Shown here one piece after another: positions 33,311-56,386 of a stretch of DNA of 64,000 nt. The stretch is from Ruminococcus sp. Lineage in GTDB: Bacteria; Bacillota; Clostridia; Oscillospirales; Ruminococcaceae. The position numbers and the translations under genes are program-made. Location: contig SVNR01000001.1 of the NCBI GenBank assembly GCA_015066815.1, positions 7,215 to 71,214 on the forward strand, given 5' to 3'. The notes under the pieces are model-generated. The model had not been told where the DNA came from. It ran no database searches and worked only from the letters and a program-made list of their open reading frames with translations. Position 1 is the first letter of the stretch; every line of letters starts with the position of its first letter.

Positions 33311-35143
33311 CTATTTTTTCTGATCTATTCGCGCAACATATACTACCCAATAATGACCGTACTGTGTATTCGGATCGTATGCATGTCCTATAGCTACACT
33401 ATTATAATTCGGGTTATCAAAGCTTTCAAACTTTGTATTTCTGACAGCTCTCATGAGGGCCGCAGGAGATGTGGACTGAGCTGTCAATACATAGCTATAT
33501 GCCGAAACATTAGCTCCGGTTTCTCTGAATATATCGTAGTCCGAACCGCCGTTTGGTCTGTTTATATCAAAAAGCTCTGTAAGCTCCTTGGCTCTTATAT
33601 CAGCTGCAACACAAAGATTATTATCCATAACAAGAGTAGATAAACCTGCTTCTTCGCGATCCTTGTTTACAAGATCTGCTAAAGCTATTTCTAATTCTTC
33701 TATTTCAGCAAGAACTGTCGTTATTGTTGTAGTAGTTACCACAGGCTTCATTGTTGTAGTCACTGTAGTTGTTGACGTCGGTTCTGGTGTTGTCGTTGTT
33801 ACGGTTGTAGTTGTCGGCTCCGGAGTTACGGTAGTTGTTACAGTTGTCACTGGCTCTGGAGTAGTAGTAGTTATCACCGTTGTCGGCTCAGGGATTGTCG
33901 TTGTTATTATTGTTGTAGTTACCGGCTCCGGACTAACAGTTGTTATCACCATTGTTGTTTCCGATGTTACTGTTGTAACATCCGAGCCATCAAACGAATA
34001 CATATACGCTCCGGACTGCGTCAGGCACTCTTCCTCTGTGAGCTCACGCTGTGTCCAGTTCTTATCTGTTGTTTTTGCCTTTATATTATAAAGTCCGAAC
34101 TCATATGTACCGGAGCTTATGCCACTTAACACGTCAAACTCAAGATATGCTATCAGACCATCACCGGCGTTTATATTCTGTATGTTATTCGACATGTATA
34201 CAGCCATATCACGGTTTCCGGTAATATATCCATAGCCTTCAAAATCCCCCCGGCGAACATTGACAAGAGAGAAAGCCGATGAATCATATTTTATATTCAT
34301 AGTTACGCCTGATATACCGATCGTGTTTTTATTCATATATACAGGAACAACAAGACGTTTTTTGTCAGCACTCAGCTCTGCTCTGTCCATAGCAAACGAG
34401 AGAAGGTCGTATCTGTTGTCAATAGTAGTTATCTCCTCTGTTGTCACCACAGCAGGCTCTGTTGTGGTTGTGACTGTTGTAACCACGGGAACACGCTCAT
34501 AAAGAAGTGTATATACATCTGACTTATCCGGGCATTCTTCAGCTGTAAGCTCTCTTGGCTTATTATCAGTGCCCAGAGCCGAAGCCTGAATACCGCTCAG
34601 AACGAACTCATAGTTATCATGCGGAACATTATCAGCCGCTGAGAACTCAAGATACAAAAGCTCTCCCTTACCCGAAATATTTTCTCCTCCGCCTGTAAGG
34701 AACTGAACTATACCTTCATCCTCTGAAAAAGCCACAGATCCGCCCATACCTGCGGAATATGCATCAACAAGACTAAAATACCTGCTGTCATATCCGACAC
34801 TGAACTGAACTGAGGATATACCTATTGATTCCATATCTATGCGAACAGGTACAACTATAGTTGACTTGTCAGTTGTGACACGGGCTTTGCTTATCTTCAG
34901 CTTTACAGTTCCCTGAACCTCAGCTCCTTCGAGAATAACCTTTTTTGCCCTGCAAAAATCAAACACGTTTACAACATCGTCATCGTTTGTGTTATAATCA
35001 GATATATTATCCTTTTCCTGACACAGCAATCTTGCTTTCATCCCATTGATATCCACAGGCTTCTCGGCGCCTGCCGGCAGTACTGCCGATGATGACAGCA
35101 TTGCTGTTGATACACATACAGATATAATTTTCTTAAAATTCAT
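33311..35143 (-). CDS. Signal peptide - partial dockerin - two cohesin-like domains - Thr/Pro linker - degenerate CAP domain
   Basis: DYNTNDDDVVNVFDFCRAKK; IVVPVRI..GISSVQFSVGYD and LVVPVYM..GISGVTMNIKYD; TTPEP repeats; LVNKDREEAGLSTLVMDNNL...YWV. Confidence 0.75.
   Translation of the reverse strand: MNFKKIISVCVSTAMLSSSAVLPAGAEKPVDINGMKARLLCQEKDNISDYNTNDDDVVNVFDFCRAKKVILEGAEVQGTVKLKISKARVTTDKSTIVVPVRIDMESIGISSVQFSVGYDSRYFSLVDAYSAGMGGSVAFSEDEGIVQFLTGGGENISGKGELLYLEFSAADNVPHDNYEFVLSGIQASALGTDNKPRELTAEECPDKSDVYTLLYERVPVVTTVTTTTEPAVVTTEEITTIDNRYDLLSFAMDRAELSADKKRLVVPVYMNKNTIGISGVTMNIKYDSSAFSLVNVRRGDFEGYGYITGNRDMAVYMSNNIQNINAGDGLIAYLEFDVLSGISSGTYEFGLYNIKAKTTDKNWTQRELTEEECLTQSGAYMYSFDGSDVTTVTSETTMVITTVSPEPVTTTIITTTIPEPTTVITTTTPEPVTTVTTTVTPEPTTTTVTTTTPEPTSTTTVTTTMKPVVTTTTITTVLAEIEELEIALADLVNKDREEAGLSTLVMDNNLCVAADIRAKELTELFDINRPNGGSDYDIFRETGANVSAYSYVLTAQSTSPAALMRAVRNTKFESFDNPNYNSVAIGHAYDPNTQYGHYWVVYVARIDQKK
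33715..33975 (-). repeat. Imperfect tandem repeats encoding a Thr-rich linker (about five PEP-TT units)
   Basis: VSPEPVTT, IPEPTT, TPEPVTT, TPEPTT, TPEPTST. Confidence 0.75.
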
Positions 35144-35278: not shown

Positions 35279-35307
35279 TTGACACATACACACCCATGTA
35301 GTATAAT
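35279..35307 (+). promoter_or_regulatory. Consensus sigmaA promoter of yfhO-wecE
   Basis: TTGACA-17-TATAAT. Confidence 0.8.
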
Positions 35308-35357
35308 TTAACTATTATAGTATGTATTATATGTATTTTTTATGCAAGGAGCTTGTC

Positions 35358-38345
35358 ATGAATATATCAGAAACACTTATCAGCACATCTGCTGCAAAAA
35401 ATCCAAAAACCAAACAAGAAACCCGGAAAGAACTGTTGGCAGGACTTATTCTGTACACGGTATTATTTTTACTGGGCATGACAATGACAACAATAAAAGC
35501 CATATCAGAAACCGGCTCACTGCTTGGCGGCGACGGAGTAGCCCAGTATTATCCTCTGCTGCTCGACCTTCGCCGTAACACTATTGATTTTTTCAGAGCT
35601 TTGTCTGAGGGTACTCCTGTTCTCAGAATGATGAACTTCAACTTTATGTTTGGTTCTGATACTGTTTCTTATTCCTCTGTTTTTTTGCCGGCTCTGCCTT
35701 TATACATGATATCGGCACTTGTTCCGGAAAGTTCCGTAGGTCTGTTTTTTGCAGTCGTTGTGATTATTCTCTCATACTTAGCAGGTATATCAAACATTTT
35801 TATGTGCAGACACTTTAAAGCCGCCGCAATCCCAAGCGGCATCTTTTCTCTGACATACGTTTTCTGCGGAAGCTACTTTTACACCATACTCTGGAATCCT
35901 ATGTTTCTCTATATGATGATAGCGTTCCCTCTTATGATAGCCGGAATAGACAACATACTTAACGACAGAAGCTGGCTTTTATTTTCCTTCAGTGTGGCAT
36001 ACCTTGCGTTATGCGGTTTCACAATGCTTCTGTATACCCTTCCGTTTGTTATAGTATTTGCTGCTGTGAGAGTTTATTTTCTGAAAAGCTCAGGATATCT
36101 AATAAACCTTGCAAAGTATTTTCTCAAAGGATTCTTCTTTTCAGTCCTCGGAATAATCATATCTGCATTCAGCATACTGCCGTATCTATACTTTTTCTTA
36201 AGCAGTTCCCGTTCATCCGGAGGAACTCCAGAGCTTTCAAAGATGTTTATTCCTTCACTTGACAAGATAACCATCCTTTTATATCCATATGATATAGGAA
36301 ATCCTGTCGGGCTCTGCCCTGTTGTTATAATATTCATCGTTCTGTCGATCATATCTGCAAAATCCCAAAAAGAACACAAGCTCTACGAATTTATCTCCCT
36401 GCTTCTGGTTTCTCTTCCTTTTGTATGGTATGGAATAAACGCTTTTATTTATGACCTGTGCCGATGGGGTTTTGTTCCTGCATGTCTGTTTTCCTTTATC
36501 GCTGCCTTCTATGCACCGGAACTTCTGAAAATAAAAAAAAGACCGGCCATAATGCTTATAGTATATCTTGCACTGCATCTGATATTATTCCCCTTCAGAC
36601 TTGGCTTCTTATGGATAGCTCTGCTTATTATCAATGCAATAGCTACATCAAACAGCGCATGCAGAAAACTTATTGTCAGATGTTATCTTAAACAAAAAAG
36701 ATTCAAAGAAAAAAACAAGAAAGCATACAGATATACTATGTCTGGTATAATTATAATTATATCTATGGCTGTGATTTTCCTGTCTGTTATCTTTATAATG
36801 TCCCCTGATTACTCTTTGTCAAAAGGCTCTGCCATCGCATTTATCTTAACGATAATCATCTGCATCCCAGCTTTTTTCAAAAAAAGGCTAAACACTCCTG
36901 TCATAAACATCCTTGCAACAACACTTGCTTCTTTTTCAATATTATTTCCGTTCTCAGAATCAGAAAGTACATTAGATTCTGCACGCACCATCGAATATAA
37001 TGATTTTTATAAGAGTCTGACAGCATACAGTCGCGAAGAAAACTTTTTCAACAGATTTTCTGATATAAACACAGAGGCTGAAAGCTTTATATACAACTCT
37101 GACTTTGAAACACAGGAAAGTGAGACAAATATATATGGCTACTCTCTGTCTGATAAAGCAGCTAATTCTGATCCTCAGATAGATCTCGCTCTACGATATG
37201 GCTTCGCCTCATCAGAAATATTTTACAGTGTAATAGACAACGATTATATAAAATTTCTCAGGCACTGTGGAATGGACAGCTCTTCGCTTCAGACATCTGT
37301 ATCTACTATGGGCTTTAACGGAAAGGAAGCGGTCTACTCTCTTCTGGGTATAAACTATCTTTATTCGGATAATGATATCACTCATATCTACGGAATGACC
37401 CCTGACAGTTCAAAAGCATATAGGAATCAAGAAAAATATATCTATAAAAACAGTTTTGCTCTCCCTGTCGGAGTTACATACGATATTTTTTCATCTTCTC
37501 AGGACTTTGAAGCATTCAACGCAGCAGAGCTCCCGTATGCCATGATGAACTCCGTTTATCTTGAGGGCTGTGACAACCTTATATATAACAGCGACAAAAC
37601 CTACTCTAAAAAATGCAGCTTCCGGACAGAACGAGAATCCAGAGGAACAACAAAGTACGGAATAGAATGCTTTAACAACACCATAACTCTTGACGAACCC
37701 GTGAAAAACAGCTTCGTATACCTTGTTTTTTCGGGAGTGTCATACCGGACTATCCCGGAATGGGGAACAAATAACCTTACTCTTAACATCGATAACAAAA
37801 ACGAGTTTATTTATCAGATAGCAAACAACGAAAGCAGCTGGAAATGGAAGCTTACAAAGGATCTGTATGCACTCCCTGTCGGAATGTGCAGAGAAAACAT
37901 AAACAAAATAAGCTTTGTAAGCTTTTTTGAATATGACTCTCTTGAGATAATAGCTGTTCCGGAAGAAACTTATACTGAAGGGTATAAACGCATATGCAGA
38001 GAAACTCTCGAAAACGTCAGATTTCATGAAAACACCCTCACCGGAAATATAACAGTATCATCCGATAAGGTGCTGTGCATAAACCTTATCCATAACAACG
38101 GATGGAGAGCCTATATAGACGGCAAAGAAGCTCCTGTTTACAAGGCAAACGGTATGTTCCTCGGAATAAAGCTTGATAAGGGCACTCACGATGTAAGACT
38201 CGTATACAGAACCCCGATGCTGTATGAAGGAGCCATGATAACCCTGGCTACGCTATTTATAATAATAGCATATAATATTCTGAAACGAAAAAAACATACA
38301 AAAACTATAAAAGCAAAGGAAGTAATAAATAATGATAAGCTTTAA
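35358..38345 (+). CDS. YfhO-family (GT-C) polytopic glycosyltransferase 1
   Basis: GDGVAQYYP; many TM segments; YKNSFALPVG; NNGWRAYIDGK...ANGMFLGI; RBS aaggag. Confidence 0.8.
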   Translation: MNISETLISTSAAKNPKTKQETRKELLAGLILYTVLFLLGMTMTTIKAISETGSLLGGDGVAQYYPLLLDLRRNTIDFFRALSEGTPVLRMMNFNFMFGSDTVSYSSVFLPALPLYMISALVPESSVGLFFAVVVIILSYLAGISNIFMCRHFKAAAIPSGIFSLTYVFCGSYFYTILWNPMFLYMMIAFPLMIAGIDNILNDRSWLLFSFSVAYLALCGFTMLLYTLPFVIVFAAVRVYFLKSSGYLINLAKYFLKGFFFSVLGIIISAFSILPYLYFFLSSSRSSGGTPELSKMFIPSLDKITILLYPYDIGNPVGLCPVVIIFIVLSIISAKSQKEHKLYEFISLLLVSLPFVWYGINAFIYDLCRWGFVPACLFSFIAAFYAPELLKIKKRPAIMLIVYLALHLILFPFRLGFLWIALLIINAIATSNSACRKLIVRCYLKQKRFKEKNKKAYRYTMSGIIIIISMAVIFLSVIFIMSPDYSLSKGSAIAFILTIIICIPAFFKKRLNTPVINILATTLASFSILFPFSESESTLDSARTIEYNDFYKSLTAYSREENFFNRFSDINTEAESFIYNSDFETQESETNIYGYSLSDKAANSDPQIDLALRYGFASSEIFYSVIDNDYIKFLRHCGMDSSSLQTSVSTMGFNGKEAVYSLLGINYLYSDNDITHIYGMTPDSSKAYRNQEKYIYKNSFALPVGVTYDIFSSSQDFEAFNAAELPYAMMNSVYLEGCDNLIYNSDKTYSKKCSFRTERESRGTTKYGIECFNNTITLDEPVKNSFVYLVFSGVSYRTIPEWGTNNLTLNIDNKNEFIYQIANNESSWKWKLTKDLYALPVGMCRENINKISFVSFFEYDSLEIIAVPEETYTEGYKRICRETLENVRFHENTLTGNITVSSDKVLCINLIHNNGWRAYIDGKEAPVYKANGMFLGIKLDKGTHDVRLVYRTPMLYEGAMITLATLFIIIAYNILKRKKHTKTIKAKEVINNDKL

Positions 38346-39459
38346 CATCCCGCCTTTTGTCGGCACTGAACTTATGCATATAGAAACTGCAATAAAAAAT
38401 CACCGCATATGCGGTGATGGACACTTCAACAAAAAGTGTATGGCCTTCATAGAAGAACTTACAGGTACCAGAAGATGCTTTCTTACGACCTCCTGTACCC
38501 ATGCGCTCGAGATGTCTGCTATCCTTGCCGGCATACAGCCGGGAGACGAAGTAATAATGCCGTCGTATACCTTTGTATCCACGGCAGACGCTTTTGTTCT
38601 CAGAGGTGCTGTTCCTGTGTTTGTCGATATACGCCCCGACACAATGAACATAGACGAAAACCTTATCGAGGACGCTATAACTGAAAAAACCAAAGCCATA
38701 GTCCCTGTCCACTATGCCGGTGTAGGCTGTGAAATGGATAAAATAACAGCTATCGCAGACAAACACAAGCTTTTTGTAATAGAGGATGCTGCACAGGCAA
38801 TGTCTTCAAAGTACAAGGGAAAACATCTCGGTACTATAGGCGACTTCGGGAGCTACAGCTTTCATGAGACAAAAAACTACAGCATGGGAGAAGGCGGCGC
38901 ACTTCTTATAAAAGACGAACAGTTTGTCGAGAGTGCCGAAATAATCCGTGAAAAGGGAACTGACAGAAGCAAGTTCTTCCGCGGACAGGTTGACAAATAC
39001 CGCTGGGTAGACTTCGGCTCGTCATATCTGCCAAGCGAACTGAACGCTGCCTATCTCTGGGCACAGTTTGAAAAAATAAACGATATATATGATAACCGCA
39101 TGCGTGCATGGAACAGATATAACGATGCGTTTAAGGAGCTTCAGAAAAAGGGAGCCTTAGAGCTCCCCTTCATTCCTGAGCACTGCGAACACAATGCACA
39201 TATGTACTATATGAAAACAGATGATCTTAATACCCGCACCAAGCTGCTTGATCATCTCAAAGCACATGATATCCTGTCTGTATTTCACTATGTCCCGCTT
39301 CATTCTGCTCCTGCAGGCTTAAAATACGGAAGATTTTCCGGAACTGACAGGTATACCACAAAGGAAAGCGAACGTCTCTTCAGACTTCCTATGTACTATA
39401 ATATTTCCGATGATGATATAGACAAAGTTATCGGGACCGTATACAGTTTTTTTGATTAA
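38332..39459 (+). CDS. wecE: dTDP-4-amino-4,6-dideoxygalactose transaminase (WecE/RffA)
   Basis: TTSCTHALEM, PSYTFVSTADAF, EDAAQA, SFHETKN, GEGGAL, REKGTDRS. Confidence 0.9.
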   Translation: MISFNIPPFVGTELMHIETAIKNHRICGDGHFNKKCMAFIEELTGTRRCFLTTSCTHALEMSAILAGIQPGDEVIMPSYTFVSTADAFVLRGAVPVFVDIRPDTMNIDENLIEDAITEKTKAIVPVHYAGVGCEMDKITAIADKHKLFVIEDAAQAMSSKYKGKHLGTIGDFGSYSFHETKNYSMGEGGALLIKDEQFVESAEIIREKGTDRSKFFRGQVDKYRWVDFGSSYLPSELNAAYLWAQFEKINDIYDNRMRAWNRYNDAFKELQKKGALELPFIPEHCEHNAHMYYMKTDDLNTRTKLLDHLKAHDILSVFHYVPLHSAPAGLKYGRFSGTDRYTTKESERLFRLPMYYNISDDDIDKVIGTVYSFFD

Positions 39460-40415
39460 TCCTCATCTGCGTCGTCGGCCTTACTGCTGACGACGTCTTT
39501 TATTACATACTGAGGCGATCTGTTAAGACATATATATATTCTTCCCACATACTCACCTATTATACCCAGCATAAGCATAAGCATTCCGCCTATGAAAAGA
39601 AGAACAGACAACAACGAACTGTAGCCGAGAAGTACATCCGGATTTATGAGTTTTCTTATTATAGTTACAAGACCGAAAACAAAACCTATAACAGAACACA
39701 AAAAACCACACCAGGTTGCCGCTCTCAGTGGCTTTACTGAAAATGCCGTAAAACCGTTCATCCACAGAGAAACAAGCTTAGTCAGTGTATATCCGGTCTT
39801 CCCCTCGCTTCTTGAACGATGCACTACATCCACGTTTGCAAAGTTACGTGTAACTCTCAGTATAAGACCTGCAAGATACGGATATGCCCCTTCGTATTTT
39901 ATCATCTCATCTGTCACAAATCTTTTCGCACACCAGAAGCTGTTCATATCCAGATCATCGGGCTTTTCCAGAAGCACATGACACATATACTGGTTAAGCC
40001 GGCTTCCGATGTTTTCAAAAAAAGAATGTTTTTTTCTGGCATACCTTCCGAATACTGCGTCATATCCGAACTCTGTTGTATGCACAAGCTCCGGTATACT
40101 TTCAAGCGGCATCTGGCCGTCATCGTCAAGGCAGATAACCATATCTCCGCTTACGGCTCTGAAGCCTGCCATCAGCGCAGCATGCTGACCAAAGTTTTTT
40201 GAAAAGTTTATTCCTTTGGCACAGCTGCTGCTTTTGCATATTTTTTTTATTTTGTCAAAAGTACCGTCTTTTGAGCCATCGTTTACCATGATGATCTCGT
40301 ATGTATAATCACTCATCATAGTCCTCATAACATCAGCCAGTTCTTCTGTAACGGCTTCTATTGTTTTTTCTGAGTTATAACACGGTATAACAAAACTCAG
40401 CAGCTTTCCGGACAT
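39456..40415 (-). CDS. GT2 polyprenol-phosphate glycosyltransferase (ArnC/GtrB-like)
   Basis: IPCYNSE, VNDGSKD, NFGQHAALMAG, LDDDGQ; two C-terminal TM segments. Confidence 0.9.
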   Translation of the reverse strand: MSGKLLSFVIPCYNSEKTIEAVTEELADVMRTMMSDYTYEIIMVNDGSKDGTFDKIKKICKSSSCAKGINFSKNFGQHAALMAGFRAVSGDMVICLDDDGQMPLESIPELVHTTEFGYDAVFGRYARKKHSFFENIGSRLNQYMCHVLLEKPDDLDMNSFWCAKRFVTDEMIKYEGAYPYLAGLILRVTRNFANVDVVHRSRSEGKTGYTLTKLVSLWMNGFTAFSVKPLRAATWCGFLCSVIGFVFGLVTIIRKLINPDVLLGYSSLLSVLLFIGGMLMLMLGIIGEYVGRIYICLNRSPQYVIKDVVSSKADDADED

Positions 40416-40428
40416 AGTTTTTCTCCAT

Positions 40429-41547
40429 TCATAAGATTTTTTTCCATTCGTTATCAAGTGACGAGCTGTGGGCTGTTTCAAACATTTTCAGTCCTTCAAC
40501 TGAAGCGTCAGCGGAACAGATATACTCTGAGATATATCTTCCGGTTTTCTTATACTCTGTAAACATATCATATATATCACTGTAATAGTTAGCAAAGGCT
40601 TCAATAAAACCCGCCGGATGACCTATCTTGAATCTGTTGTAGCGTTCATCAAGACCTATCTCTGAATTGTTGCTGCGATCTATGATACTTGTGCAGCCAT
40701 GCTTATCAAATACCCTTAACAGCTCCGGCTCAAGCTGATACCACTCTGCTGCCTTTTCACTTCCGTAAACCTTTATCCTGAGTCCGTTTCTGTGACCGAG
40801 CGCAGCCTTACTGAACCACATATGCGCCGATATATCTGAAGTATACTTTATCATACAGGAAACATCGTCCACAACATCTTCAAAAAAACCATAGGTACTT
40901 TCCTGAGAAACTATCTCTAACGGTTTTTCTCCTGTAAGAAAATATATCATGTTATGCAGATGCGTTCCGAGATCAAGTGAGATAGTCGGGATTTCATAAT
41001 CAGAAAGTCTCCACTCCTGCGGACTGGGGATTTTTCCGTCAGCGGTATACCTGATAAAGCCTTCCTGCGGCATATGTGCTACTATTTTGTTTATTTTACC
41101 AAGTTCACCTTTTTTTATCATCTGTCTGAGCATACGTATAACTGGATAACCTGTATAATTATATGTTACACACAAAAAACTTTCCTTATCGTTTGCAGCC
41201 TCACATATCTTTTTTCCTGACTCTGCACTTGTTGCAAGAGATTTTTCACAGATAACCGGATATCCTGCCTCTATAACATCCATAACTATACGCTCGTGTG
41301 TATTTGTCGGAGTAAGTACTGCTATTATATCAACGTTTTCTTTTTCTTTTATAAGCATCTCCCTGTAGTCATCATAAACACGGGAAGTGTCTACGCCGAA
41401 CTCCTGCCCTGTCCTCGTGTTTATATCCTTGTGTCTGCTGAAAGCGCCCGCAACAAGTCTGAACCTTCCGTCCATCTGACAAGATATCTTATGTGTTCTT
41501 CCTATTGCAGAGTTTATCCCTCCGCCTATAAACGCTATATTATACAT
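40429..41547 (-). CDS. Gfo/Idh/MocA oxidoreductase
   Basis: IGGG..SAIG..H, CEKSL, YNYTGYP, DLGTH. Confidence 0.88.
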   Translation of the reverse strand: MYNIAFIGGGINSAIGRTHKISCQMDGRFRLVAGAFSRHKDINTRTGQEFGVDTSRVYDDYREMLIKEKENVDIIAVLTPTNTHERIVMDVIEAGYPVICEKSLATSAESGKKICEAANDKESFLCVTYNYTGYPVIRMLRQMIKKGELGKINKIVAHMPQEGFIRYTADGKIPSPQEWRLSDYEIPTISLDLGTHLHNMIYFLTGEKPLEIVSQESTYGFFEDVVDDVSCMIKYTSDISAHMWFSKAALGHRNGLRIKVYGSEKAAEWYQLEPELLRVFDKHGCTSIIDRSNNSEIGLDERYNRFKIGHPAGFIEAFANYYSDIYDMFTEYKKTGRYISEYICSADASVEGLKMFETAHSSSLDNEWKKIL

Positions 41548-41555
41548 AAAAGCAC

Positions 41556-42734
41556 CTACCTTACTTTGATTTTTATAAGCTCATTGATAAGAGACAGCTT
41601 TTTTGCCATCTCATGTTTATCTGAAAACTTAAGAAAAACTATGCCTGCTTTATACAGAAGCTCATTTTCTATTATGTCGCCCTCTTTCCACCATAAAAAG
41701 CTTTCCACTATATTTTGCAATATCTCTTCAGAAAAAACCACATCCTCTATAACACCCTTCCGGTTTCCCATTATACAATGACGTGTATAATATCCGTCCG
41801 GTTCTTTTCGGGTGCATGGCATAAAACCCTCTCCGGTTTCAGCACCAACTATCATATCAGGATACGGTACGCCTGTTGCTAACTCCACAAACCTGATATA
41901 GAGATCTCCGGGAGCTCTTCTGCATACTTCTATTATATACGGGATACTGTCTTCGGATAAAATATACTGTATATGCAGTATTCCGTCAACCAGACCAAGA
42001 CTTTGAGATATTGTTTCCGAGTATTCACAGAGCATGTCCGGAACGGAGTCCGGAACATCCGCCGGTGTTGATGCACCGGAAACCATATATTTGTTAAGAT
42101 AATAGTGTTCGTTGTCGGCAAAAAAGAAGATAACTTTTTTATTTTTGATAAAAGCGGAAAAACCGTGGTTGGTTCCGTCTATAAACTTCTCTATGATAAT
42201 GTGATCCTCTCTCGTCCGGCAAAAAGCATCCGAACAGGCACTGATAAGCTCAGCCTGATCACAGCACTTTTTTATTCCCTTACCGCCCGTAAGATCAACA
42301 GGCTTTACAATGACAGGATATCCAATATCACCGGCATATCTGCACGCTTCTTCCACACTGAACGACTTGTACGCCTGAGGCGTCGGCATTCCGTTATCTG
42401 CTGCAAACTTGCGGTATCTGTCCTTATGATGAAGGATCAGAGACGTCTCATAACTGTCATGGCCGGGAAGCCCGAGCTTTTCTGCAGCATAGGCCGCAGA
42501 CAGCAGTGCAAAGTCGTTGCATCCTGAGCATATAGCATCTGCCTTCACAGTACGTGCAAGCGAAAGTATAGCCTCCTTATCTGAAAAATCACAGTTTACA
42601 TACCTGTCTGAAAACTTATGACCCTGACCGTCTTCCTGATTTCCGGTCGTTATAACATAAAAGCCTTTTTTCTGTGCGGACTGTATAAGAGGTATCTCCG
42701 CATGACTGCCTCCAAGAATAAGAAGTTTTTTCAT
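41556..42734 (-). CDS. ATP-grasp enzyme
   Basis: KKLLILGG, YPVIVKPVDLTGGKG, IIEKFIDG, IIEVCRR. Confidence 0.85.
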   Translation of the reverse strand: MKKLLILGGSHAEIPLIQSAQKKGFYVITTGNQEDGQGHKFSDRYVNCDFSDKEAILSLARTVKADAICSGCNDFALLSAAYAAEKLGLPGHDSYETSLILHHKDRYRKFAADNGMPTPQAYKSFSVEEACRYAGDIGYPVIVKPVDLTGGKGIKKCCDQAELISACSDAFCRTREDHIIIEKFIDGTNHGFSAFIKNKKVIFFFADNEHYYLNKYMVSGASTPADVPDSVPDMLCEYSETISQSLGLVDGILHIQYILSEDSIPYIIEVCRRAPGDLYIRFVELATGVPYPDMIVGAETGEGFMPCTRKEPDGYYTRHCIMGNRKGVIEDVVFSEEILQNIVESFLWWKEGDIIENELLYKAGIVFLKFSDKHEMAKKLSLINELIKIKVR

Positions 42735-42742
42735 TTTTTCAC

Positions 42743-43876
42743 CTACTGCTTTTCCGGAATTGCATAGAGAACAGTCTCACACATCCACGGTGCATGCTGT
42801 CTCATATAAAACTTATACTTTATCCTATCGTTTGAAAAGCTGCTTATATATTGCGGAATAGTTATAAAATCATCTGCTCTGTGATAAACACATATTGCAA
42901 GCTTAGGATAGCATCTTCTTATTGTATCCGCTGCACCCTCAAGTGCCTTAAGCTCACTTCCCTCTATATCCATTTTTATAAGAGTAACCTCTTCACCTGA
43001 TAGCTCCTCATCTATTGTAGTAACAGGAACAGAGACTATGCTGTCCTCATCACCTGTAAACTCTGCTGCATTTTCTGCTTCATATTCATTAAAGGTTGAG
43101 GCTGACTGTTTTGAAGAATGAAACTTCAGAACATCGTTTTTGTTCCATACCCCCTTGTTTACTACTCTTATGTTTTTTCCTGAAATATTTTTCTTGATTT
43201 CTGAGTTGTTCTGTTCATCCGGCTCAAAAGCTACTATCCTGTTATACTGTCCTTTTGTATATGAAAGTATTTCTTTTATTGTATCACCTGTATAAGCTCC
43301 ACAGTCAACTATTGTTTCATTATCCTGAAGCCCGAGAAGCTCATAGTCATACTGATATCCGTCTTTGTTTCTAAGGTTCGAAAGCTCACCGGGACTATCG
43401 GAAATCTTTCCGTTAATATATGCTGCAAAAACTTTTTTTGAAAGCTCATCCTCCAGCATCTCATAGCTTTCATCAAAAAGCTCTCTGTTCTGCAGAATAT
43501 AGTCATAGGTCATTCTGAAAAAATCATAAAGATCATCTATATACCACATTTTTGTATCAGGATAGCTTTTCATAATGTCTGCCGCTCTTTCACAGTTCAT
43601 AAAAGAGATAAGGAATACATAGCCAGGAGCTTTTATCAGCTCCTCAAAAGCATAAACCTCCTTGCCCATAAACTTTTTTCCCTGTTCATAGTATTCAGAG
43701 TCAACACAATATGCGTCTGCATCTATATTATACTTTTTCAGGAAGCAGGTCTGCATCTCCGCCCGTACTCCGGCGCCATATAAAACAAGTTTTTTATTTT
43801 CTTTTTTTGATACCAGTATTTCCTTTATAACATCAAGACGATGATCCGGTGTATTTTTTATAAGCTCTATAAACAT
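42743..43876 (-). CDS. FkbM-family methyltransferase
   Basis: VDCGAYTGD, AFEPD, IKMDIEGSEL, PKLAICVYH. Confidence 0.88.
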   Translation of the reverse strand: MFIELIKNTPDHRLDVIKEILVSKKENKKLVLYGAGVRAEMQTCFLKKYNIDADAYCVDSEYYEQGKKFMGKEVYAFEELIKAPGYVFLISFMNCERAADIMKSYPDTKMWYIDDLYDFFRMTYDYILQNRELFDESYEMLEDELSKKVFAAYINGKISDSPGELSNLRNKDGYQYDYELLGLQDNETIVDCGAYTGDTIKEILSYTKGQYNRIVAFEPDEQNNSEIKKNISGKNIRVVNKGVWNKNDVLKFHSSKQSASTFNEYEAENAAEFTGDEDSIVSVPVTTIDEELSGEEVTLIKMDIEGSELKALEGAADTIRRCYPKLAICVYHRADDFITIPQYISSFSNDRIKYKFYMRQHAPWMCETVLYAIPEKQ

Positions 43877-43879
43877 TTT

Positions 43880-44233
43880 TTATCCTCCCAAAAAAACAAT
43901 AACTATACCTAAGACTATCATAAAAAGCCCTGCAAGCCTTCTTCGGCTTATTTTTTCCTTGAGCAGGACTCTTCCAAGAACCGAAACAAATATATATCCG
44001 GAAGCTTCTATAACAGGTCCTGCGGACAAGGGAACTTTCTTATATGAGTACACGGTTATAAGCGAAGAAAAGAAAAATATAAAGTATGCAGACAGAACAT
44101 ATGGATTCATATATTCCTTAAGTCTGCTTTCATACTGTTTTCCAGCGCCTTTTTTTAGTATTATCTGCGAAACAGATGATATAAAAACCGAAAAAATGAA
44201 GATGCAGACTGATACTGCCATACTACTGTTCAT
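43880..44233 (-). CDS. Small EamA/SMR protein (ArnE/F-like flippase subunit)
   Basis: Four TM segments; SQIILKKG, PLS.GP, LKEKIS. Confidence 0.75.
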   Translation of the reverse strand: MNSSMAVSVCIFIFSVFISSVSQIILKKGAGKQYESRLKEYMNPYVLSAYFIFFFSSLITVYSYKKVPLSAGPVIEASGYIFVSVLGRVLLKEKISRRRLAGLFMIVLGIVIVFLGG

Positions 44234-44582
44234 TTTCTGTCACCACCATCAGAATCCCCACTATAACTATCAGTGCCCCTGCAAGCTTAACAGGAGAAAG
44301 CTGTTCTGAAAAAAACACCCTTCCGAGAACCAGCCCCCATACTACTGTTATTCCCTTGTTTGCATATGCGGCAGTCAGACTCATTTTCTTCAGTATCTGC
44401 TGCCACAGTATCGCATATACGAAAAGATTTATAATCACTATCCCATAAAAGCATATATACTCAGGAGATAAAAACTTTTCAGCTGAAGCAAGCTTGGAAA
44501 ATATCCCTCCAAAAGAATACATAAACAGTATAAGATGCAGAAGCAGATAATTTTTTACCTGCGAAAACCTCTCTTTTATCAT
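44223..44582 (-). CDS. Small EamA/SMR protein (ArnE/F-like flippase subunit)
   Basis: Four TM segments; WQQILKKMSLTAAYA, FFSEQLS. Confidence 0.75.
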   Translation of the reverse strand: MIKERFSQVKNYLLLHLILFMYSFGGIFSKLASAEKFLSPEYICFYGIVIINLFVYAILWQQILKKMSLTAAYANKGITVVWGLVLGRVFFSEQLSPVKLAGALIVIVGILMVVTENEQ

Positions 44583-47038
44583 ACTTTTTTACTTTTCCTC
44601 TTTAAAACATGGTTTGTCATCATATACACCACAAGCATTGCAGCTCCGATAAGTGAGATGACCATTCCCCGGTTATATAGCTTTTTGTTTGAATACGTAA
44701 AAACTATATCGTTCTTTCCGGACTCAACCTTTACTGCCATAAAACCATAGTTTGCACGGATTATCTCAGCGTCTCTGCCGTTTACTTCCGCACTCCAGCC
44801 TTCCTCATAAGGAATACTGAAGAAAACAAGGTTTTCACGCTCTGAGTCTACAGATGCATAAAAACTGTTCCTGTCAGTCTTAAACTCCTCACAGGCACTG
44901 TTCCGGCGTTTTTCGCTGTCACTATAATATGTTTCCGAGTCAAGACCTATAATATCATCCTCGGATATAGCCGGCAATATATCACCATAGCGTTCTGCGT
45001 CTTCGTCAGAGAGCACAAGAGCTCTCATCATAACAAGCATTTTCTGAAGGTATTTTTCCTGATAGTTATATTCAGGAGTTTTTCCTATTCCGAACCTGTC
45101 GAAAACATCTTCCTTATTATCAGCTTCCTTTTTTTCTTCAGGATGCTCCTCGCCGTACTTTTCTGTAAACTCATCCAAGGAAGAGCTTCCTATACAATAA
45201 TCATACATAAAACCTATAGGAATATATCCCTTGTTCTCATAAATATGATAACAGGGCTCTTCACCCACCTCATAAAAGCCCTCCATCTTATTCCGGACAA
45301 GTTCAACGTTAAGCTCATCGTTTGTTGACAGACTCATATAATATTTTACCGACAGCAGAGCATAGAGCGGATAATACCTGCTGTCAATATATGCCTTCTG
45401 TGTTCTGCTTATCTCAAACTCATCATAGAAGTCATATACTGAAGACGGTGCCATAGTTATAAAGTTATCCAGTGCCGGAACGTTCCAGAGTATATTTGCA
45501 TTGACAATCTGACCGTCTATACGAAAGTATTCTTCTTCATTATTCAGAATATCAGGCTTTTTCAATACAGATACCGGATATGAATCTGTTGTGGCAGCGT
45601 CAATATTCCTCATATCAGAAACATATATAGTATTAAACAAAAAAATCCCGCCCATCACAAGATACAATAGTCTTTGTTTTTTCTTGTTTTTATATCTGAA
45701 ATAAACAAGATACAGTATCATAACAGCAAGAGCTGCTAAGCCTGCCATTTTCCAGAAGTAAAGCGGATCACAGGCAAATCCGAACCATGCTGTTTTTTCT
45801 ATTACCTGAAACTCCTCATCAAGAGAAGAATCAACCGTTCCGGGAAGACAGGCAAGCAGTCCCAGTAGTCCGAGTCCGGCAAGCGAAAGTCTGATTCCGA
45901 ATGCTATGCTTTTTTCATTATCGTTATCTATCTCTAACGATGTCATAGCTGCCATTATAAGCAAGGGCATATAGAACCATCTTGCGTAAAACTCCTTGTT
46001 GAACATAAAGAAAAAGCTGTTTAAAACAGGGATAAGTGAAACAAAAAGACTTATCACCGTAAGAAGTGAAAAGGAAGAACGCTTGTTCTGTCTGATATGA
46101 GCTAAAACAAAAACGATACCTACAAACGGAAGATAAAGCGATATTGATGTCCATCCGTTTTCACCTTCAAACAAAGAAAATACCCCTGCCTTATCAGGCA
46201 TCATAAAGATGCTCTGAACTATCCTCCAAGGTATAGTAGCATCCGGATATGATATCATATCAAAACCGCTTATAAACTCGGAAACCCTTGAGTTTGACAT
46301 AAGTGATACAACAGACGGATACAGAAGTATTCCGGATAACAAAACTCCGATAACTGCCTCCACTCCAAGTCCCGAGAGCTTCTTAAAAGAAAAATCATAC
46401 TCGCGGGAAACGCACTTTATCACAAAGTAAATTATCAGAAAAACCGCCTGACCATAAAAGAAAAATGCGTTGAGTGCTGCCATATATGCCACTGTCAGAG
46501 CAAAAAAAGCTTTTTTGTTTTCTTTCATATACATATCCATAGACAGAAGCATCAGAGGAAACCATGCGGTTATATCGTGAAAGGAGCCGAAAACAAAACT
46601 GAAGGTCTGAAAGCCTGAAAAAGCATAGAGAAGTGAACCGATGACTGCAGAGTCATCAGTACGTGTATATCTTCTTATATATATGTATGACGTGAGCGCT
46701 GCTACAGCTGTCTTGAGAGCGGTTATCACCGGAAGTATTAAAACCGCAGCGTTTACAGAGCGCACAAGAAAAAGAAACCAGAAAAAAGGCGTTGTGATAA
46801 TATGCGAGTATGATAAAAACGTATCTCCGCCAAGTCCTGTCACAAAGTCCCATCCTGAAAACCCAGAACGGAATATATCAAAACAATGTGCGTTAAATAT
46901 AATATGCTGAAAATTATAATCCCCCATATATATAAAGTACCCGCCATCTGTTATCATAGCGGGAAGCATTATCATCATCATCAGAAAAAAGCTTATGACA
47001 AAAGCTTTGGTGTATGATTTCTTAAAAACAGTACCCAT
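44579..47038 (-). CDS. YfhO-family (GT-C) polytopic glycosyltransferase 2
   Basis: GDYNFQH; LYAFSG; YARWFY; FSIPYEEGWSAEVNG...ANYGFMAV. Confidence 0.82.
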   Translation of the reverse strand: MGTVFKKSYTKAFVISFFLMMMIMLPAMITDGGYFIYMGDYNFQHIIFNAHCFDIFRSGFSGWDFVTGLGGDTFLSYSHIITTPFFWFLFLVRSVNAAVLILPVITALKTAVAALTSYIYIRRYTRTDDSAVIGSLLYAFSGFQTFSFVFGSFHDITAWFPLMLLSMDMYMKENKKAFFALTVAYMAALNAFFFYGQAVFLIIYFVIKCVSREYDFSFKKLSGLGVEAVIGVLLSGILLYPSVVSLMSNSRVSEFISGFDMISYPDATIPWRIVQSIFMMPDKAGVFSLFEGENGWTSISLYLPFVGIVFVLAHIRQNKRSSFSLLTVISLFVSLIPVLNSFFFMFNKEFYARWFYMPLLIMAAMTSLEIDNDNEKSIAFGIRLSLAGLGLLGLLACLPGTVDSSLDEEFQVIEKTAWFGFACDPLYFWKMAGLAALAVMILYLVYFRYKNKKKQRLLYLVMGGIFLFNTIYVSDMRNIDAATTDSYPVSVLKKPDILNNEEEYFRIDGQIVNANILWNVPALDNFITMAPSSVYDFYDEFEISRTQKAYIDSRYYPLYALLSVKYYMSLSTNDELNVELVRNKMEGFYEVGEEPCYHIYENKGYIPIGFMYDYCIGSSSLDEFTEKYGEEHPEEKKEADNKEDVFDRFGIGKTPEYNYQEKYLQKMLVMMRALVLSDEDAERYGDILPAISEDDIIGLDSETYYSDSEKRRNSACEEFKTDRNSFYASVDSERENLVFFSIPYEEGWSAEVNGRDAEIIRANYGFMAVKVESGKNDIVFTYSNKKLYNRGMVISLIGAAMLVVYMMTNHVLKRKSKKV

Positions 47039-47058
47039 AAAATTTCCTTTTCCAATAA

Positions 47059-47100
47059 ATAAGACTACAGTAAAGTTTTTAGCTCTTACTGTAGTCTTAT
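47059..47100 (-). terminator. Hairpin between pilin and yfhO2 (weak U-tract)
   Basis: 15-bp stem ataagactacagtaa/ttactgtagtcttat. Confidence 0.6.
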
Positions 47101-47144
47101 AGTCAAATAAATTAAATATGCGCTGTTATACAGTCAACTGACTA

Positions 47145-47630
47145 TTACCAGCTTGCACCCTGAGATGCACTACCAACCTGTGCGCTATTGAATGTTCTTG
47201 CTGAATCAGTCGGGCATGGATTTGGATAACCACCCATGTATGTTGTACCGTTTGATGAGAAGATAGCTGCTTCAACAATACCTGTGTTAATCTGTACTGC
47301 CCATCTAGCACTTGCGTTTGTACCAGTAGCTGCTGCGCTTACTTCGGCTATAAAGCTCTTTGTTGTGCCACCGAGGGTATATGATTGATCAGTACCAGCA
47401 TTACCACTATCAATAGTAGCCGTAATAACTGTACCAGCTGTCTCAGCTTCCTGAGATATAGTCTGAGCATTTGTAAAGATTGTCTTAGCGTTTGAGTTAG
47501 CTGCGTTGATGGATGACTTTCTTACCCAGTTCATCATTGTAGGAACAAGGATAGCTGCAAGTACACCGATGATAGCGATAACAACGATAAGCTCGATAAG
47601 TGTAAAACCTTTAAAATTTCTCTTTTTCAT
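47145..47630 (-). CDS. Type IV major pilin 1 (CbpC/GP25-like), Ser/Thr/Ala-rich
   Basis: KG|FTLIELIVVIAIIGVLAAILVP class III signal; RBS aggagg. Confidence 0.92.
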   Translation of the reverse strand: MKKRNFKGFTLIELIVVIAIIGVLAAILVPTMMNWVRKSSINAANSNAKTIFTNAQTISQEAETAGTVITATIDSGNAGTDQSYTLGGTTKSFIAEVSAAATGTNASARWAVQINTGIVEAAIFSSNGTTYMGGYPNPCPTDSARTFNSAQVGSASQGASW

Positions 47631-47753
47631 GATAAATTTCCTCCTAAAATATAATAAAAATATTTTTTATTTTACGTTTTCATATGTACTGTACTGCATA
47701 AAGCTCATGACGTCCTGAACTTATCTGCGGTACTTCCTGTACCCTATGTTCAT

Positions 47754-47782
47754 ATTATATCACTGCTCTTTTTGTTTGTCAA
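47754..47782 (-). promoter_or_regulatory. Consensus sigmaA promoter of pilin 1
   Basis: TTGACA-17-TATAAT with TG extension. Confidence 0.85.
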
Positions 47783-47897: not shown

Positions 47898-47960
47898 TAT
47901 CATAAACCAGAAAAAAGCAGTGCGGAGCATTTCCGCACTGCTTTTTTCTGGTTTATGATA
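47898..47960. terminator. 29-bp perfect inverted repeat at the pilin 2 stop
   Basis: tatcataaaccagaaaaaagcagtgcgga-gcatt-tccgcactgcttttttctggtttatgata. Confidence 0.75.
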
Positions 47961-48471
47961 TCTTTTTTGTATCCCATGCCTTCGAAAGATCCGTTCCGAT
48001 GGCACAGTCAATATAGTCTTCTATATTTCCTCCTGTCATCCTGAACTCCTTGTTTGTCGGGCACTGCACAGGAAAACCTCCGACTGTAGAACAGCCATTG
48101 CCTGAAAGCACAACAGCCTTGACTGTGCTTTCTTCTATCTTTGCAGCCCACTCAACATCTGACATATCTGTAAGTGCTTCGTTTATTGACTGGAACTTAG
48201 ATATAAGAGTAGCATCTGTTACTCCGGTTATATTTCCGGCAGTGTCACATACTATAGTACAGTCAGGCACCGCTATGCCCTCGTTGGTACTCATATCCGT
48301 AAGAAGCACCTGCAGCTGAGTACAAACCTCGCTTGCGTTGTTGTTGTATGTTGTTATCCTCGACTTGAACACCCAGTTCATCATTACAGGTACAAGTATA
48401 GCGGCGAGCACCCCGATGATAGCGATAACAACAATAAGTTCGATAAGTGTAAATCCCTTTAGTTTTTTCAT
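47953..48471 (-). CDS. Type IV pilin 2
   Basis: MKKLKG|FTLIELIVVIAIIGVLAAILVP; GGFPVQCP echoes GGYPNPCP of pilin 1. Confidence 0.9.
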   Translation of the reverse strand: MKKLKGFTLIELIVVIAIIGVLAAILVPVMMNWVFKSRITTYNNNASEVCTQLQVLLTDMSTNEGIAVPDCTIVCDTAGNITGVTDATLISKFQSINEALTDMSDVEWAAKIEESTVKAVVLSGNGCSTVGGFPVQCPTNKEFRMTGGNIEDYIDCAIGTDLSKAWDTKKIS

Positions 48472-48718: not shown

Positions 48719-49789
48719 TCAGTCTCCTGCGTTAAGGAATCTATAGAACTCAAGCTTATCCTGACACTTATCAAGAGCGTCCGCTTCGCGGATAACTCCC
48801 TGTCTTACCATACGGGCAAGCTCCTGGTCAAGACACATCATGCCGAACTGACGTCCGGTCTGGATAGCAGACTGAATAAGATGAACCTTGTTGTCTCTTA
48901 TCATAGCAGAGCAGGCATCTGTTACGTTGAGTATCTCCATGGCTGCTATACGACCCTTGCCGTCAGCCTTAGGAATAAGAGTCTGTGCCATGATACCTAC
49001 AAGAACGTTTGCAAGCTGTGTTCTGATCTGACTCTGCTGGTATTCCGGATAAACGTCGATGATACGGTTGATAGTATCAGCAGCACTTGTTGTATGAAGG
49101 GTCGAGAGCACAAGATGTCCTGTTTCCGCTGCTGTTACGGCTGCAGTAACTGTTTCAAGGTCACGCATTTCTCCAACGAGGATTATGTCCGGGTCCTCAC
49201 GGAGAGCAGATCTGAGGGCACCTGCAAAGTCCGGAACGTCAGGGCCTATCTCACGCTGGTTTACCATGCAGCGCTTGTGTTCATGAACATACTCGATAGG
49301 ATCTTCTATAGTGATTATATGTGCGCTTTTGTTGAGGTTGGCATAGTCAAGCATAGCTGCGAGGGATGTTGACTTACCTGAACCTGTAGGTCCTGTTACA
49401 AGAACAAGTCCTCTCGGTCTCATGGCAAAGTCTGCGAGTATCGGCGGAAGACCAAGGTCCTCAAGTGTAGGAATATCGTTTCTGAGAAGACGAAGAGCTA
49501 TAGCTGTGTGGTTTCTCTGACGGAAAACGTTGACTCTGTGACGGTAGCCTCTCTTTGTAACATATGAGAAGTCACAGTCAAGATGCTGATGAAGTCTTCC
49601 CTTGAGTTCATCAGGGCATATCTTCTCTGCAACGTCAGAGATGGATTCTTCATCCATAAGCTCATATGAGCTGAGCTTTCTGAGAGCACCGTTGAGTCTT
49701 ACTACAGGTGCCATACCATATGTAAAGTGAAGGTCGGAACAACCGAGCACTCTGGCTTCGTCGAGTATCTTATCAATATCTATTAACAT
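48719..49789 (-). CDS. pilT: Type IV pilus retraction ATPase
   Basis: SDLHF, TGPTGSGKSTSL, TIEDPIE, ALREDPD.ILVGEMRD, TLHT. Confidence 0.95.
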   Translation of the reverse strand: MLIDIDKILDEARVLGCSDLHFTYGMAPVVRLNGALRKLSSYELMDEESISDVAEKICPDELKGRLHQHLDCDFSYVTKRGYRHRVNVFRQRNHTAIALRLLRNDIPTLEDLGLPPILADFAMRPRGLVLVTGPTGSGKSTSLAAMLDYANLNKSAHIITIEDPIEYVHEHKRCMVNQREIGPDVPDFAGALRSALREDPDIILVGEMRDLETVTAAVTAAETGHLVLSTLHTTSAADTINRIIDVYPEYQQSQIRTQLANVLVGIMAQTLIPKADGKGRIAAMEILNVTDACSAMIRDNKVHLIQSAIQTGRQFGMMCLDQELARMVRQGVIREADALDKCQDKLEFYRFLNAGD

Positions 49790-49847
49790 TAAAAACAAAC
49801 CTCCGTTTTTATAGTATACTCATACCTCTTTTTTAAGCTATGATGTT

Positions 49848-51518: not shown

Positions 51519-51555
51519 AACCGGACTCCAACTCCTTAATAAAAATTATTTTTTC

Positions 51556-51584
51556 TTGAATATTATTGGCTTTTATGTTAGAAT
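51556..51584 (+). promoter_or_regulatory. sigmaA promoter of pilD
   Basis: TTGAAT-17-TAGAAT. Confidence 0.65.
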
Positions 51585-51619
51585 GATGATATAAAAAATA
51601 AACAAGGAGGATCAAAAAC

Positions 51620-52468: not shown

Positions 52469-52493
52469 CTCATAACTAATCTTAAAAAATATT

Positions 52494-52526
52494 ACAGGCA
52501 GTCTTTGCAGTGCGGAGACTGCCTGT
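52494..52526. terminator. Bidirectional terminator
   Basis: acaggcagtct/agactgcctgt between convergent genes. Confidence 0.7.
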
Positions 52527-52538
52527 TTTACTTACTGA

Positions 52539-53561: not shown

Positions 53562-53578
53562 TGTTTATTCTCCTCCCG

Positions 53579-53908: not shown

Positions 53909-53926
53909 TTACCATCACTCTCCTCA

Positions 53927-56299: not shown

Positions 56300-56386
56300 C
56301 AGTTTTACCACCTTTCCTGATAGTTTTGTTTTTACGCGTTTAGGGAGATCGCCAGTAAACAACCTCCCTAAAAAACCTGCTATAAA

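Follow-up and report, generated by a model that had tools for sequence, protein, structure and literature searches.

Candidate type IV pilin glycosylation island with YfhO-family transferases behind a pilin gene in an uncultured genus related to Ruminococcus

The window analysed here, a stretch of 64,000 nucleotides from Ruminococcus sp. (GCA_015066815.1, contig SVNR01000001.1; G000:C65:7215-71214 in the genome and contig handles used below), contains a type IV pilus locus and, behind its two tandem pilin genes, an island of glycosylation genes. Two of these encode C-fold glycosyltransferases (GT-C) of the YfhO family, YfhO819 and YfhO1007, and YfhO819 lies directly behind the second pilin gene, pilin B (Table 1). 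The locus very probably encodes an Arn-like, three-component system of extracytoplasmic glycosylation, with an amino sugar linked to undecaprenyl phosphate (Und-P). Moderate confidence attaches to reading it as a strain-variable pilin-glycosylation island in which Arn-like logic is aimed at a protein. Gene order in relatives points, with a similarly modest degree of assurance, to pilin B as the acceptor of YfhO819. The island is a variation on systems already known, namely protein glycosylation by YfhO enzymes, a donor pathway of Arn type and the accessory cassettes of pilin genes. A pilin-linked YfhO island is not described in the literature searched.

The comparisons cover 17 species representatives of the window's genus, including the window's own genome (G000; 2.64 Mb, 92 contigs, 96.7% complete), and seven metagenomic relatives of YfhO819. 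The latter are placed in the same genus because PilB and PilT are 90-96% identical. The closest PilT sequences, at 80% identity or above, all come from metagenome-assembled genomes, and PilT of named Ruminococcus is 77% identical; by this measure the genus, an uncultured one from gut or rumen, is not R. albus.

The most telling result on the pilin link comes from a single pair, genome G014 and locus L127. Their PilT proteins are 100% and their pilin A proteins 99% identical, which makes them one species by pilus locus. Their DNA is 95-100% identical until ~100 nt into pilin B, just past the conserved N-terminus, and identity then falls to 46-79% over the remaining pilin B. The two YfhOs are 41% identical, and a full sugar island is present in one strain and none in the other. 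Immediately after the island identity is back to 96.6%, and the gene for a surface protein with cohesin and CAP domains (cohesin-CAP) lies within that flank. The drop inside pilin B and the return after the island indicate exchange of a single cassette that comprised the variable pilin B head together with the YfhO island.

This exchange bears on the acceptor. A wall polymer, be it lipoteichoic acid (LTA), wall teichoic acid (WTA) or another secondary wall polysaccharide, might be the target instead, the position behind the pilin then reflecting insertion into a recombination-prone region. We regard this as unlikely. It agrees with the island having been inserted, in this lineage specifically, between the pilins and a flank that is conserved, with tailoring genes that vary as phage-receptor glycans do, and with the fact that the canonical CsbB/GtcA/YfhO systems, and the YfhO functions first demonstrated genetically, concern LTA and WTA. 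The breakpoint, however, lies inside pilin B and not after it, and a wall polymer could be served by other enzymes of G000: two further YfhO paralogs, whose genes stand in conserved housekeeping contexts, and three further family 2 glycosyltransferases (GT2) of the GtrB type. The swapped cassette also takes in the C-terminal domain of pilin B and not the cohesin-CAP gene, which counts against a second alternative, weighed below, that looks for the acceptor among other secreted proteins.

The association of YfhO with a pilin belongs to one clade of the family. G000 has four YfhO paralogs. In a tree of sequences from the genus and the family, the pilin-adjacent YfhOs form one clade with long branches (Shimodaira-Hasegawa-like approximate likelihood ratio test, SH-aLRT, 99), set apart from a slowly evolving housekeeping clade present in every genus member. 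Of the 14 members of the pilin-linked clade that were examined, 13 have pilin B as their immediate upstream neighbour, in the same orientation; this position, with no promoter space past the hairpin described below, speaks against a wall polymer target. In a family-wide search, 79 of 80 related loci carried the housekeeping paralog. None of these 79 adjoins a pilin, so the linkage is not family-wide. The initial annotation had proposed checking whether yfhO-pilA linkage is conserved across Oscillospiraceae: it holds in the relevant clade, down to a same-species swap inside the pilin, but it is a feature of one genus and not general in that group.

Within the genus, a YfhO of this clade follows pilin B in six genomes (G000, G003, G004, G011, G014 and G015, the last a pseudogene). 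All seven metagenomic relatives of YfhO819 (48-57% identity) show the order pilin B, YfhO, EamA pair; their islands include WecE in every case and a GT2 in 6/7. The tailoring genes come in variant sets: FkbM, ATP-grasp and Gfo; AMP-ligase, LuxE, LuxC, short-chain dehydrogenase and NeuB; or octopine dehydrogenase with ATP-grasp. In G006 (L137, G006:C314), the gene behind pilin B is a GT2 gene at 2600-3355, broken by the contig end, which suggests that the slot holds a different glycosylation gene set there. Four genomes have an LRR-dockerin gene in this place, as described below; in the remaining genus representatives, the pilin locus is cut by contig ends or lacking.

Some of these loci have further features of their own. 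The G015 pseudogene (L045, G015:C109, 5224-7625) has several stops and split open reading frames (ORFs), and is followed by another kind of sugar cluster, in which DegT-like and FkbM-like genes occur; the G015 pilin B tail reads ..KTADDWGK, that of the close relative G011 ..NTASTWGK. The pilin-linked YfhO of G003 (L032 15584-19606) has 1340 aa, including a C-terminal extension of ~520 aa without family assignment. Extra multi-pass membrane proteins occur in L034 (G011; 12766-16443), L044 (G004; 430-2037 and 4451-6242) and L136 (G012; 1-1887). In those near pilin-linked YfhOs, the first helix is followed by an acidic motif (FHSDE.W, WFDEAEAW), and they may be additional enzymes of GT-C-like type; those beside the G004 and G011 YfhOs had no significant Pfam match. 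Sulfatase-domain (LtaS/PptA-like) proteins are found nearby in G011 and G012.

Pilin B has the characters of a type IVa pilin: a class III signal peptide, a long N-terminal helix and a beta-sheet head. A 7-residue leader precedes G/FTLIE (KGFTLIE), and the AlphaFold model (predicted local distance difference test, pLDDT, 89) is a classic T4a pilin with a helix at 11-64 and a beta-sheet. Two regions stand out as potential O-glycosylation sites: the alpha-beta loop, which is rich in Thr, Ser and Gly, and the C-terminal tail (..NSAQVGSASQGASW), which is uncharged and rich in Ser, Gly and Ala. Among the pilin B alleles, 15 of which were aligned, an uncharged Ser/Gly/Ala/Thr-rich tail is found in every YfhO-linked pilin B; it is absent in G001, G008 and G013, and the tail of G015, where the YfhO is a pseudogene, has lost Ser/Thr. 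As support for the pilin acceptor this correlation is weak. N-glycosylation of pilin B was considered and dropped, the counts of N-x-S/T sequons being inconsistent (0 to 7). Pilin A, with 6 Cys, probably starts at the ATG at 48471, giving MKKLKGFTLIEL; it has a perfect TTGACA-17-TATAAT promoter with TG (48577-48549) and a strong, 20-bp terminator (47951-47907).

The arrangement of transcription signals suggests that YfhO819 is expressed together with pilin B. The 106-nt spacer between the two genes holds a terminator-like hairpin (-24.6 kcal/mol, z = -3.0), and a hairpin with a U-run stands just before the YfhO ribosome-binding site in all five loci compared (the window and four relatives), in differing sequences. 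At this place it leaves too little space for YfhO to have a promoter of its own. The hairpin resembles an attenuator or a terminator that leaks, which would fit incomplete termination behind an abundant pilin transcript. The pilin B promoter is the probable source of read-through into the YfhO operon. The genes of YfhO819, the EamA pair, FkbM, ATP-grasp, Gfo/Idh/MocA and GT2 are tightly packed or overlapping on the minus strand; the YfhO819 stop overlaps the first EamA gene by 4 nt, and the EamA genes overlap each other by 11 nt. WecE and YfhO1007 overlap by 14 nt on the plus strand, convergent to the YfhO819 operon, and their promoter diverges from that of the cohesin-CAP gene (35195-35167, 11/12).

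The initial annotation had described an amino-sugar cluster fused to the pilus locus downstream of the major pilin. Every gene it named is present at its place with a family match, and both ends of its region (35279 and 47782) fall on perfect sigma-70 promoters. The architecture needs some revision: YfhO819 does lie behind a pilin, but this is the second of two tandem genes; the island adjoins the pilus locus, but across the hairpin-bearing spacer; and WecE with the second YfhO forms a separate operon with its own promoter.

The chemistry of the sugar is best read from its aminotransferase. The WecE protein exceeds two equivalog cut-offs (NF008687, 619.8 bits against 375; TIGR02379, 616.9 bits against 434.85) and matches the E. 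coli WecE structures (PDB 4piw/4zah) at E = 8e-153. This is far ahead of ArnB (5e-48), perosamine synthase, QdtB and WbpE. The enzyme is 77-80% identical across islands. Because the aminotransferase is a clear WecE, the sugar is taken to be a deoxythymidine diphosphate (dTDP)-linked 4-amino-4,6-dideoxyhexose, in agreement with the 4-amino-6-deoxyhexose originally proposed. A 3-amino sugar made by a GnnA/GnnB-like Gfo and DegT pair was ruled out on the clear WecE and on the place of Gfo within the variable tailoring set. FkbM, ATP-grasp and Gfo/Idh/MocA are all tailoring genes that vary between islands. The ATP-grasp enzyme putatively acylates the sugar 4-amino group; the FkbM protein has its FkbM domain at the C-terminus, behind ~190 N-terminal aa without family assignment.

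The three-component scheme of GT2, flippase and GT-C, also put forward in the initial annotation, agrees with the proteins found. Over its whole length the GT2 can be aligned with PgfS (173 bits) and ArnC (162.5 bits), both below the equivalog cut-offs of 500 and 529; it has a DDD motif and two C-terminal transmembrane (TM) helices, and its likely start is M23 of the listed ORF. The putative flippase is the EamA pair, which by its weak NCBIfam matches to ArnE/ArnF (E = 4.5e-5 to 7e-4, below cut-offs) may form a heterodimeric ArnE/ArnF-like transporter of Und-P-sugar. The pair stands directly behind YfhO in 8/8 islands of the YfhO819 type, and no GtrA-family gene is present.

Both YfhO proteins score far above the PF09586 cut-off of 28.5 bits (YfhO819, 221.9; YfhO1007, 164.1). 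The AlphaFold model of YfhO819 (pLDDT 87.9; predicted template modelling score, pTM, 0.89) has a GT-C fold. Its best Foldseek match is ArnT (5f15; E = 4.9e-6, probability 1.0), followed by AftD, AglB, DPY19 and STT3; a sequence search against the PDB gave no match, and the fold search alone was informative. The first extracytoplasmic loop, just after TM1, contains Asp40 as part of a GDYxxQ motif; the Lys-rich N-terminus lies inside. The invariance of Asp40 in 50 homologs suggests a catalytic role. YfhO1007 has a GGDGxxQYYP motif after TM1 that is kept in its orthologs. These, at 37-45% identity, come from the pilin-linked islands L130 and L131; of the 17 genus representatives, G000 alone has YfhO1007.

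Several observations weigh against a pilin acceptor. The glycan on pilin B, the most conjectural element of the scheme, is proposed from comparative evidence. The linked cases all come from one genus and one syntenic site, and a single ancestral insertion with physical linkage could be the source of the association. In four genomes (G001, G008, G012 and G013), the gene behind pilin B encodes an LRR-dockerin protein, and the clade YfhO of G013 stands away from the pilin, beside a GH16-dockerin gene. The syntenic pilus locus of named Ruminococcus has no YfhO. Pairwise identities of pilin B and YfhO show no positive co-variation (rho = -0.30), and the mirror-tree test is not used as support. The pilin B of G012 has a Ser-rich tail but no YfhO, and the tail of pilin B is modelled at pLDDT ~80, not clearly disordered. 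The G013 case also speaks for a wall polymer target, as do the YfhOs of G014, G011 and G003, which have no adjacent sugar pathway. Finally, G000 has no RmlB over the cut-off (TIGR01181, best 132 bits against 365) and no RmlA homolog, which leaves the WecE substrate without a visible source in that genome.

The last point raises the possibility that the locus is partly non-functional in G000, with a WecE branch lacking its substrate and an island that is decaying or a silent remnant. This is very improbable. The missing RmlA and RmlB in a 96.7%-complete assembly, the occurrence of RmlB in just 8/17 genus genomes (one G011 copy lies ~13 kb from the pilin-linked YfhO) and the G015 pseudogene would fit it. 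All ten island genes, however, are intact and tightly packed, the convergent operon has its own perfect promoter, and WecE is strongly conserved. In an assembly of 92 contigs, moreover, a small rmlAB operon could sit in a gap. The islands of L126 and L132 carry RmlA and an RmlB-ATP-grasp fusion within the cluster. G000 also has Gmd and a neighbouring short-chain dehydrogenase/reductase (SDR) gene on contig C49.

The Thr/Ser-rich linkers of other secreted surface proteins, among them cellulosome-type proteins such as cohesin-CAP, are a possible third kind of acceptor beyond the pilin and wall polymer of the initial annotation. The island would then be a general protein glycosylation system like PgtC2 or Pgf, a reading to which we give little weight. 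Streptococcal YfhOs do target Ser/Thr-rich disordered segments near folded domains, and such a segment occurs in the neighbouring cohesin-CAP protein, whose Thr/Pro linker is ~110 aa long. The YfhO1007-WecE operon is head-to-head with the cohesin-CAP gene, divergent from it, in the window and in L130, and in L128 a cohesin-CAP-like gene stands between pilin B and YfhO. Orthologs of cohesin-CAP border the island in relatives too. Ones with equally Thr-rich linkers, however, occupy the same place in island-free genomes (G001), so that the presence of this protein does not track the island.

The pilus machinery itself, whose gene order is the same across the genus and in named Ruminococcus, is listed with the other features in Table 1. 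Its conserved genes orf811 and orf252 occupy the place expected for PilN/PilO-like or tip components. In some relatives, defence or toxin-antitoxin-type genes lie between PilT and the pilins: AbiEii-like AAA_21 with RloB in L036 (G012:C149, 3777-5835), and SocA_Panacea with DUF4869 in L126 (5562-8246). Downstream of the pilus locus in named Ruminococcus (L133-L135), a constant landmark is the gene of PnuC, a nicotinamide mononucleotide transporter, which in the window lies at 28645-29343 on the minus strand; in the window's genus, the stretch from the pilins to PnuC has grown to ~18 kb of surface-protein and glycosylation genes. Within it lie another flanking cellulosome-type surface protein, a DUF4874-DUF4832-dockerin protein (29505-31925, plus strand), and a GGDEF diguanylate cyclase (32036-33142) between the dockerin and cohesin-CAP proteins.

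Table 1. Features of the glycosylation island, the pilins and the pilus locus, in window coordinates.
Feature	Position	Strand	Assignment and evidence
Cohesin + CAP surface protein	33311..35143	-	Pfam Cohesin, CAP; syntenic border of the island
Promoter of YfhO1007-WecE operon	35279..35307	+	perfect sigma-70 consensus, 12/12
YfhO1007	35322..38345	+	second, larger YfhO-family GT-C, translationally coupled to WecE; PF09586 6.7e-48
WecE-type aminotransferase	38332..39459	+	dTDP-4-keto-6-deoxy-D-glucose 4-aminotransferase (DegT family); WecE equivalog
GT2	39456..40415	-	PF00535 4.4e-28; ArnC/PgfS/GtrB type
Gfo/Idh/MocA oxidoreductase	40429..41547	-	Pfam; best PDB matches are uncharacterised oxidoreductases
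ATP-grasp ligase	41556..42734	-	Pfam ATP-grasp families; PDB 4dim 2e-25; L-amino-acid ligases 3vot, 30vh
FkbM-family methyltransferase (377 aa)	42743..43876	-	PF05050 1.8e-19; TIGR01444 over cut-off; PDB 2py6 1.8e-21
EamA/SMR-like pair (119 + 117 aa, 4 TM each)	44223-44582 and 43880-44233	-	Pfam EamA 2.2e-7 and 4.8e-8
YfhO819	44579..47038	-	pilin-linked YfhO-family GT-C; PF09586 2.3e-65
Stem-loop	47060..47099	-	15-bp AT-rich stem, then U-rich stretch; ~20 nt before YfhO start codon
Pilin B (161 aa)	47145..47630	-	proposed acceptor; N_methyl 1.3e-9
Promoter ahead of pilin B	47754..47782	-	perfect sigma-70 consensus, 12/12; extended -10 TG
Pilin A	47953..48471	-	first of two tandem type IV pilin genes; N_methyl 1.4e-8
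Type IV pilus machinery	48719..60012	-	Pfam T2SSF, PilM_2, N_methyl, Peptidase_A24, T2SSE, MshEN
PilT	48719-49798	-	
PilB	49848-51518	-	
PilD	51620-52468	+	
Minor pilins	53579-53908 and 52539-53561	-	
orf811 (811 aa)	53927-56362	-	no Pfam match
orf252 (252 aa)	56387-57145	-	no Pfam match
PilM-like	57145-58818	-	
PilC	58888-60012	-	

Protein glycosylation by YfhO enzymes has precedents. The first YfhO functions shown by genetics were LTA and WTA glycosylation, and the initial annotation took known YfhO proteins to act on lipoteichoic acid. That view is out of date: in streptococci, PgtC2 (with GtrB) and PgfM1 (with PgfS), both of the YfhO family, O-glycosylate extracytoplasmic protein segments, Ser/Thr-rich, disordered and beside folded domains, which raises the prior for a protein acceptor. 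The pgf genes, moreover, adjoin the genes of their substrate adhesins. In the Pgf (S. mutans PgfS, PgfE, PgfM1 and PgfM2) and GtrB-PgtC2 (S. pyogenes, S. pneumoniae) systems, as proposed here, a GT2 makes a polyprenyl-phosphate sugar and one or two YfhO-family GT-Cs transfer it to Ser/Thr of extracytoplasmic proteins. The island shares with Pgf the presence of two YfhO paralogs in one cluster, and in NCBIfam its GT2 and YfhOs match PgfS, PgfM1 and PgfM2 best or match nothing else. The scores, however, are so far under the equivalog cut-offs (PgfS, 173 vs 500; PgfM2, 53 and 47 vs 1500; PgfM1, 31 vs 1400) that the island is not a Pgf ortholog. It lacks an epimerase (PgfE) gene and has a dedicated, putative flippase pair of ArnE/F-like type. 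Its sugar would be a tailored 4-amino-4,6-dideoxyhexose, where Pgf and GtrB-PgtC2 use glucose or N-acetylgalactosamine, and the proposed acceptor is a type IV pilin, not a long Ser/Thr-rich disordered region.

In its logic the locus resembles the Arn (Pmr) system, which places 4-amino-4-deoxy-L-arabinose on lipid A. The common steps, as proposed for the locus, are a 4-aminotransferase, N-acylation, a GT2 acting on Und-P, an SMR/EamA-type heterodimeric flippase and transfer outside the membrane by a GT-C. ArnT is the best structural match of YfhO819, and the ArnC and ArnE/F models match the GT2 and the EamA pair. No Arn equivalog model reaches its cut-off, however. The aminotransferase is WecE and not ArnB (203.9 bits vs a cut-off of 631), ArnC scores 162.5 vs 529, and ArnA and ArnD are absent. 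The GT-C is a YfhO and not ArnT/PMT_2, and the host is a Gram-positive without lipid A. The locus works like Arn without being an Arn member.

The gene arrangement has a parallel in the pilin accessory cassettes of Pseudomonas aeruginosa, in which pilA-tfpO defines group I and pilA-tfpW group IV, TfpW being a GT-C D-arabinofuranosyltransferase and the TfpO family being Wzy_C. There too, a glycosyltransferase gene found in some strains and not in others comes straight after the pilin gene and is exchanged jointly with the variable region of the pilin, and, as proposed for the island, the sugar passes from a lipid-linked donor outside the cytoplasm. TfpW, cited as a GT-C pilin enzyme, and TfpO are set apart from YfhO here by family descriptions and not by sequence comparison. 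The present pilus is Gram-positive, and the donor pathway genes lie within the same island. The teichoic acid system CsbB/GtcA/YfhO (B. subtilis, S. aureus, L. monocytogenes Lmo1079) likewise combines a GT2, a flippase and a YfhO GT-C with an Und-P-sugar donor. Its flippase is GtrA/GtcA and not an EamA/SMR pair, and its sugar is N-acetylglucosamine and not an amino-dideoxyhexose; the island differs further in its pilus-locus context and in the separate housekeeping YfhO paralogs of G000.

A pathway can be proposed on this basis. In the cytoplasm, WecE would make dTDP-4-amino-4,6-dideoxyhexose; the ATP-grasp ligase would acylate the amino group, and FkbM, possibly with Gfo/Idh/MocA, would tailor the sugar further. 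The ArnC/PgfS-like GT2 would then move the sugar to undecaprenyl phosphate, for export by the putative flippase pair. Outside, Ser/Thr residues of pilin B would receive the sugar from YfhO819, while the pilus is being assembled or earlier; this enzyme is probably expressed by leaky-terminator read-through from the strong pilin B promoter. The likely site is the variable C-terminal domain of pilin B, in the alpha-beta loop or the Ser/Gly/Ala-rich tail. YfhO1007 might draw on this donor too, for another site or another acceptor.

A more far-reaching proposal is tentative. The locus might give these fibre-associated bacteria a strain-specific pilus "glycan serotype", in which each pilin B allele would come with a matched YfhO and with an Arn-like, modular set of genes for making an N-acylated 4-amino-4,6-dideoxyhexose. 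A recombination event within the pilin would swap head, transferase and sugar chemistry at once, for example as an escape from pilus phages or to retune adhesion. Strains with two YfhOs would have a division of labour, the pilin falling to YfhO819 and another surface protein, for instance the Thr-rich cohesin-CAP, to YfhO1007. If this is true, monoderms would gain their first enzymology of type IV pilin glycosylation, and the YfhO family a further class of substrate.

Ruminococci adhere to cellulose by means of their type IV pili. In R. albus, the pilin GP25 has been described as a 25-kDa glycoprotein for more than 20 years, and the R. flavefaciens pilin has an unexpected mass and isoelectric point (pI). 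The initial annotation drew on GP25, a glycoprotein indeed so described; for the window's genus, which is not R. albus, it serves by analogy. The literature searched names no enzyme for R. albus pilin glycosylation, and no paper in it ties YfhO to pilins.

The evidence is comparative throughout and comes from one uncultured genus. Within that scope, the locus names specific genes by which a monoderm could glycosylate its type IV pilin, and these would be the first candidates for pilus-glycosylating enzymes in a Gram-positive bacterium. If the reading of pilin B as acceptor is true, the YfhO family would extend from teichoic acids and streptococcal disordered regions to pilins, and an Arn-type amino-sugar donor pathway would have been re-used for a protein. 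The swap inside the pilin gene suggests a route by which pilus surfaces may diversify in the gut and rumen, with a bearing on phage-host relations and on the ecology of adhesion.

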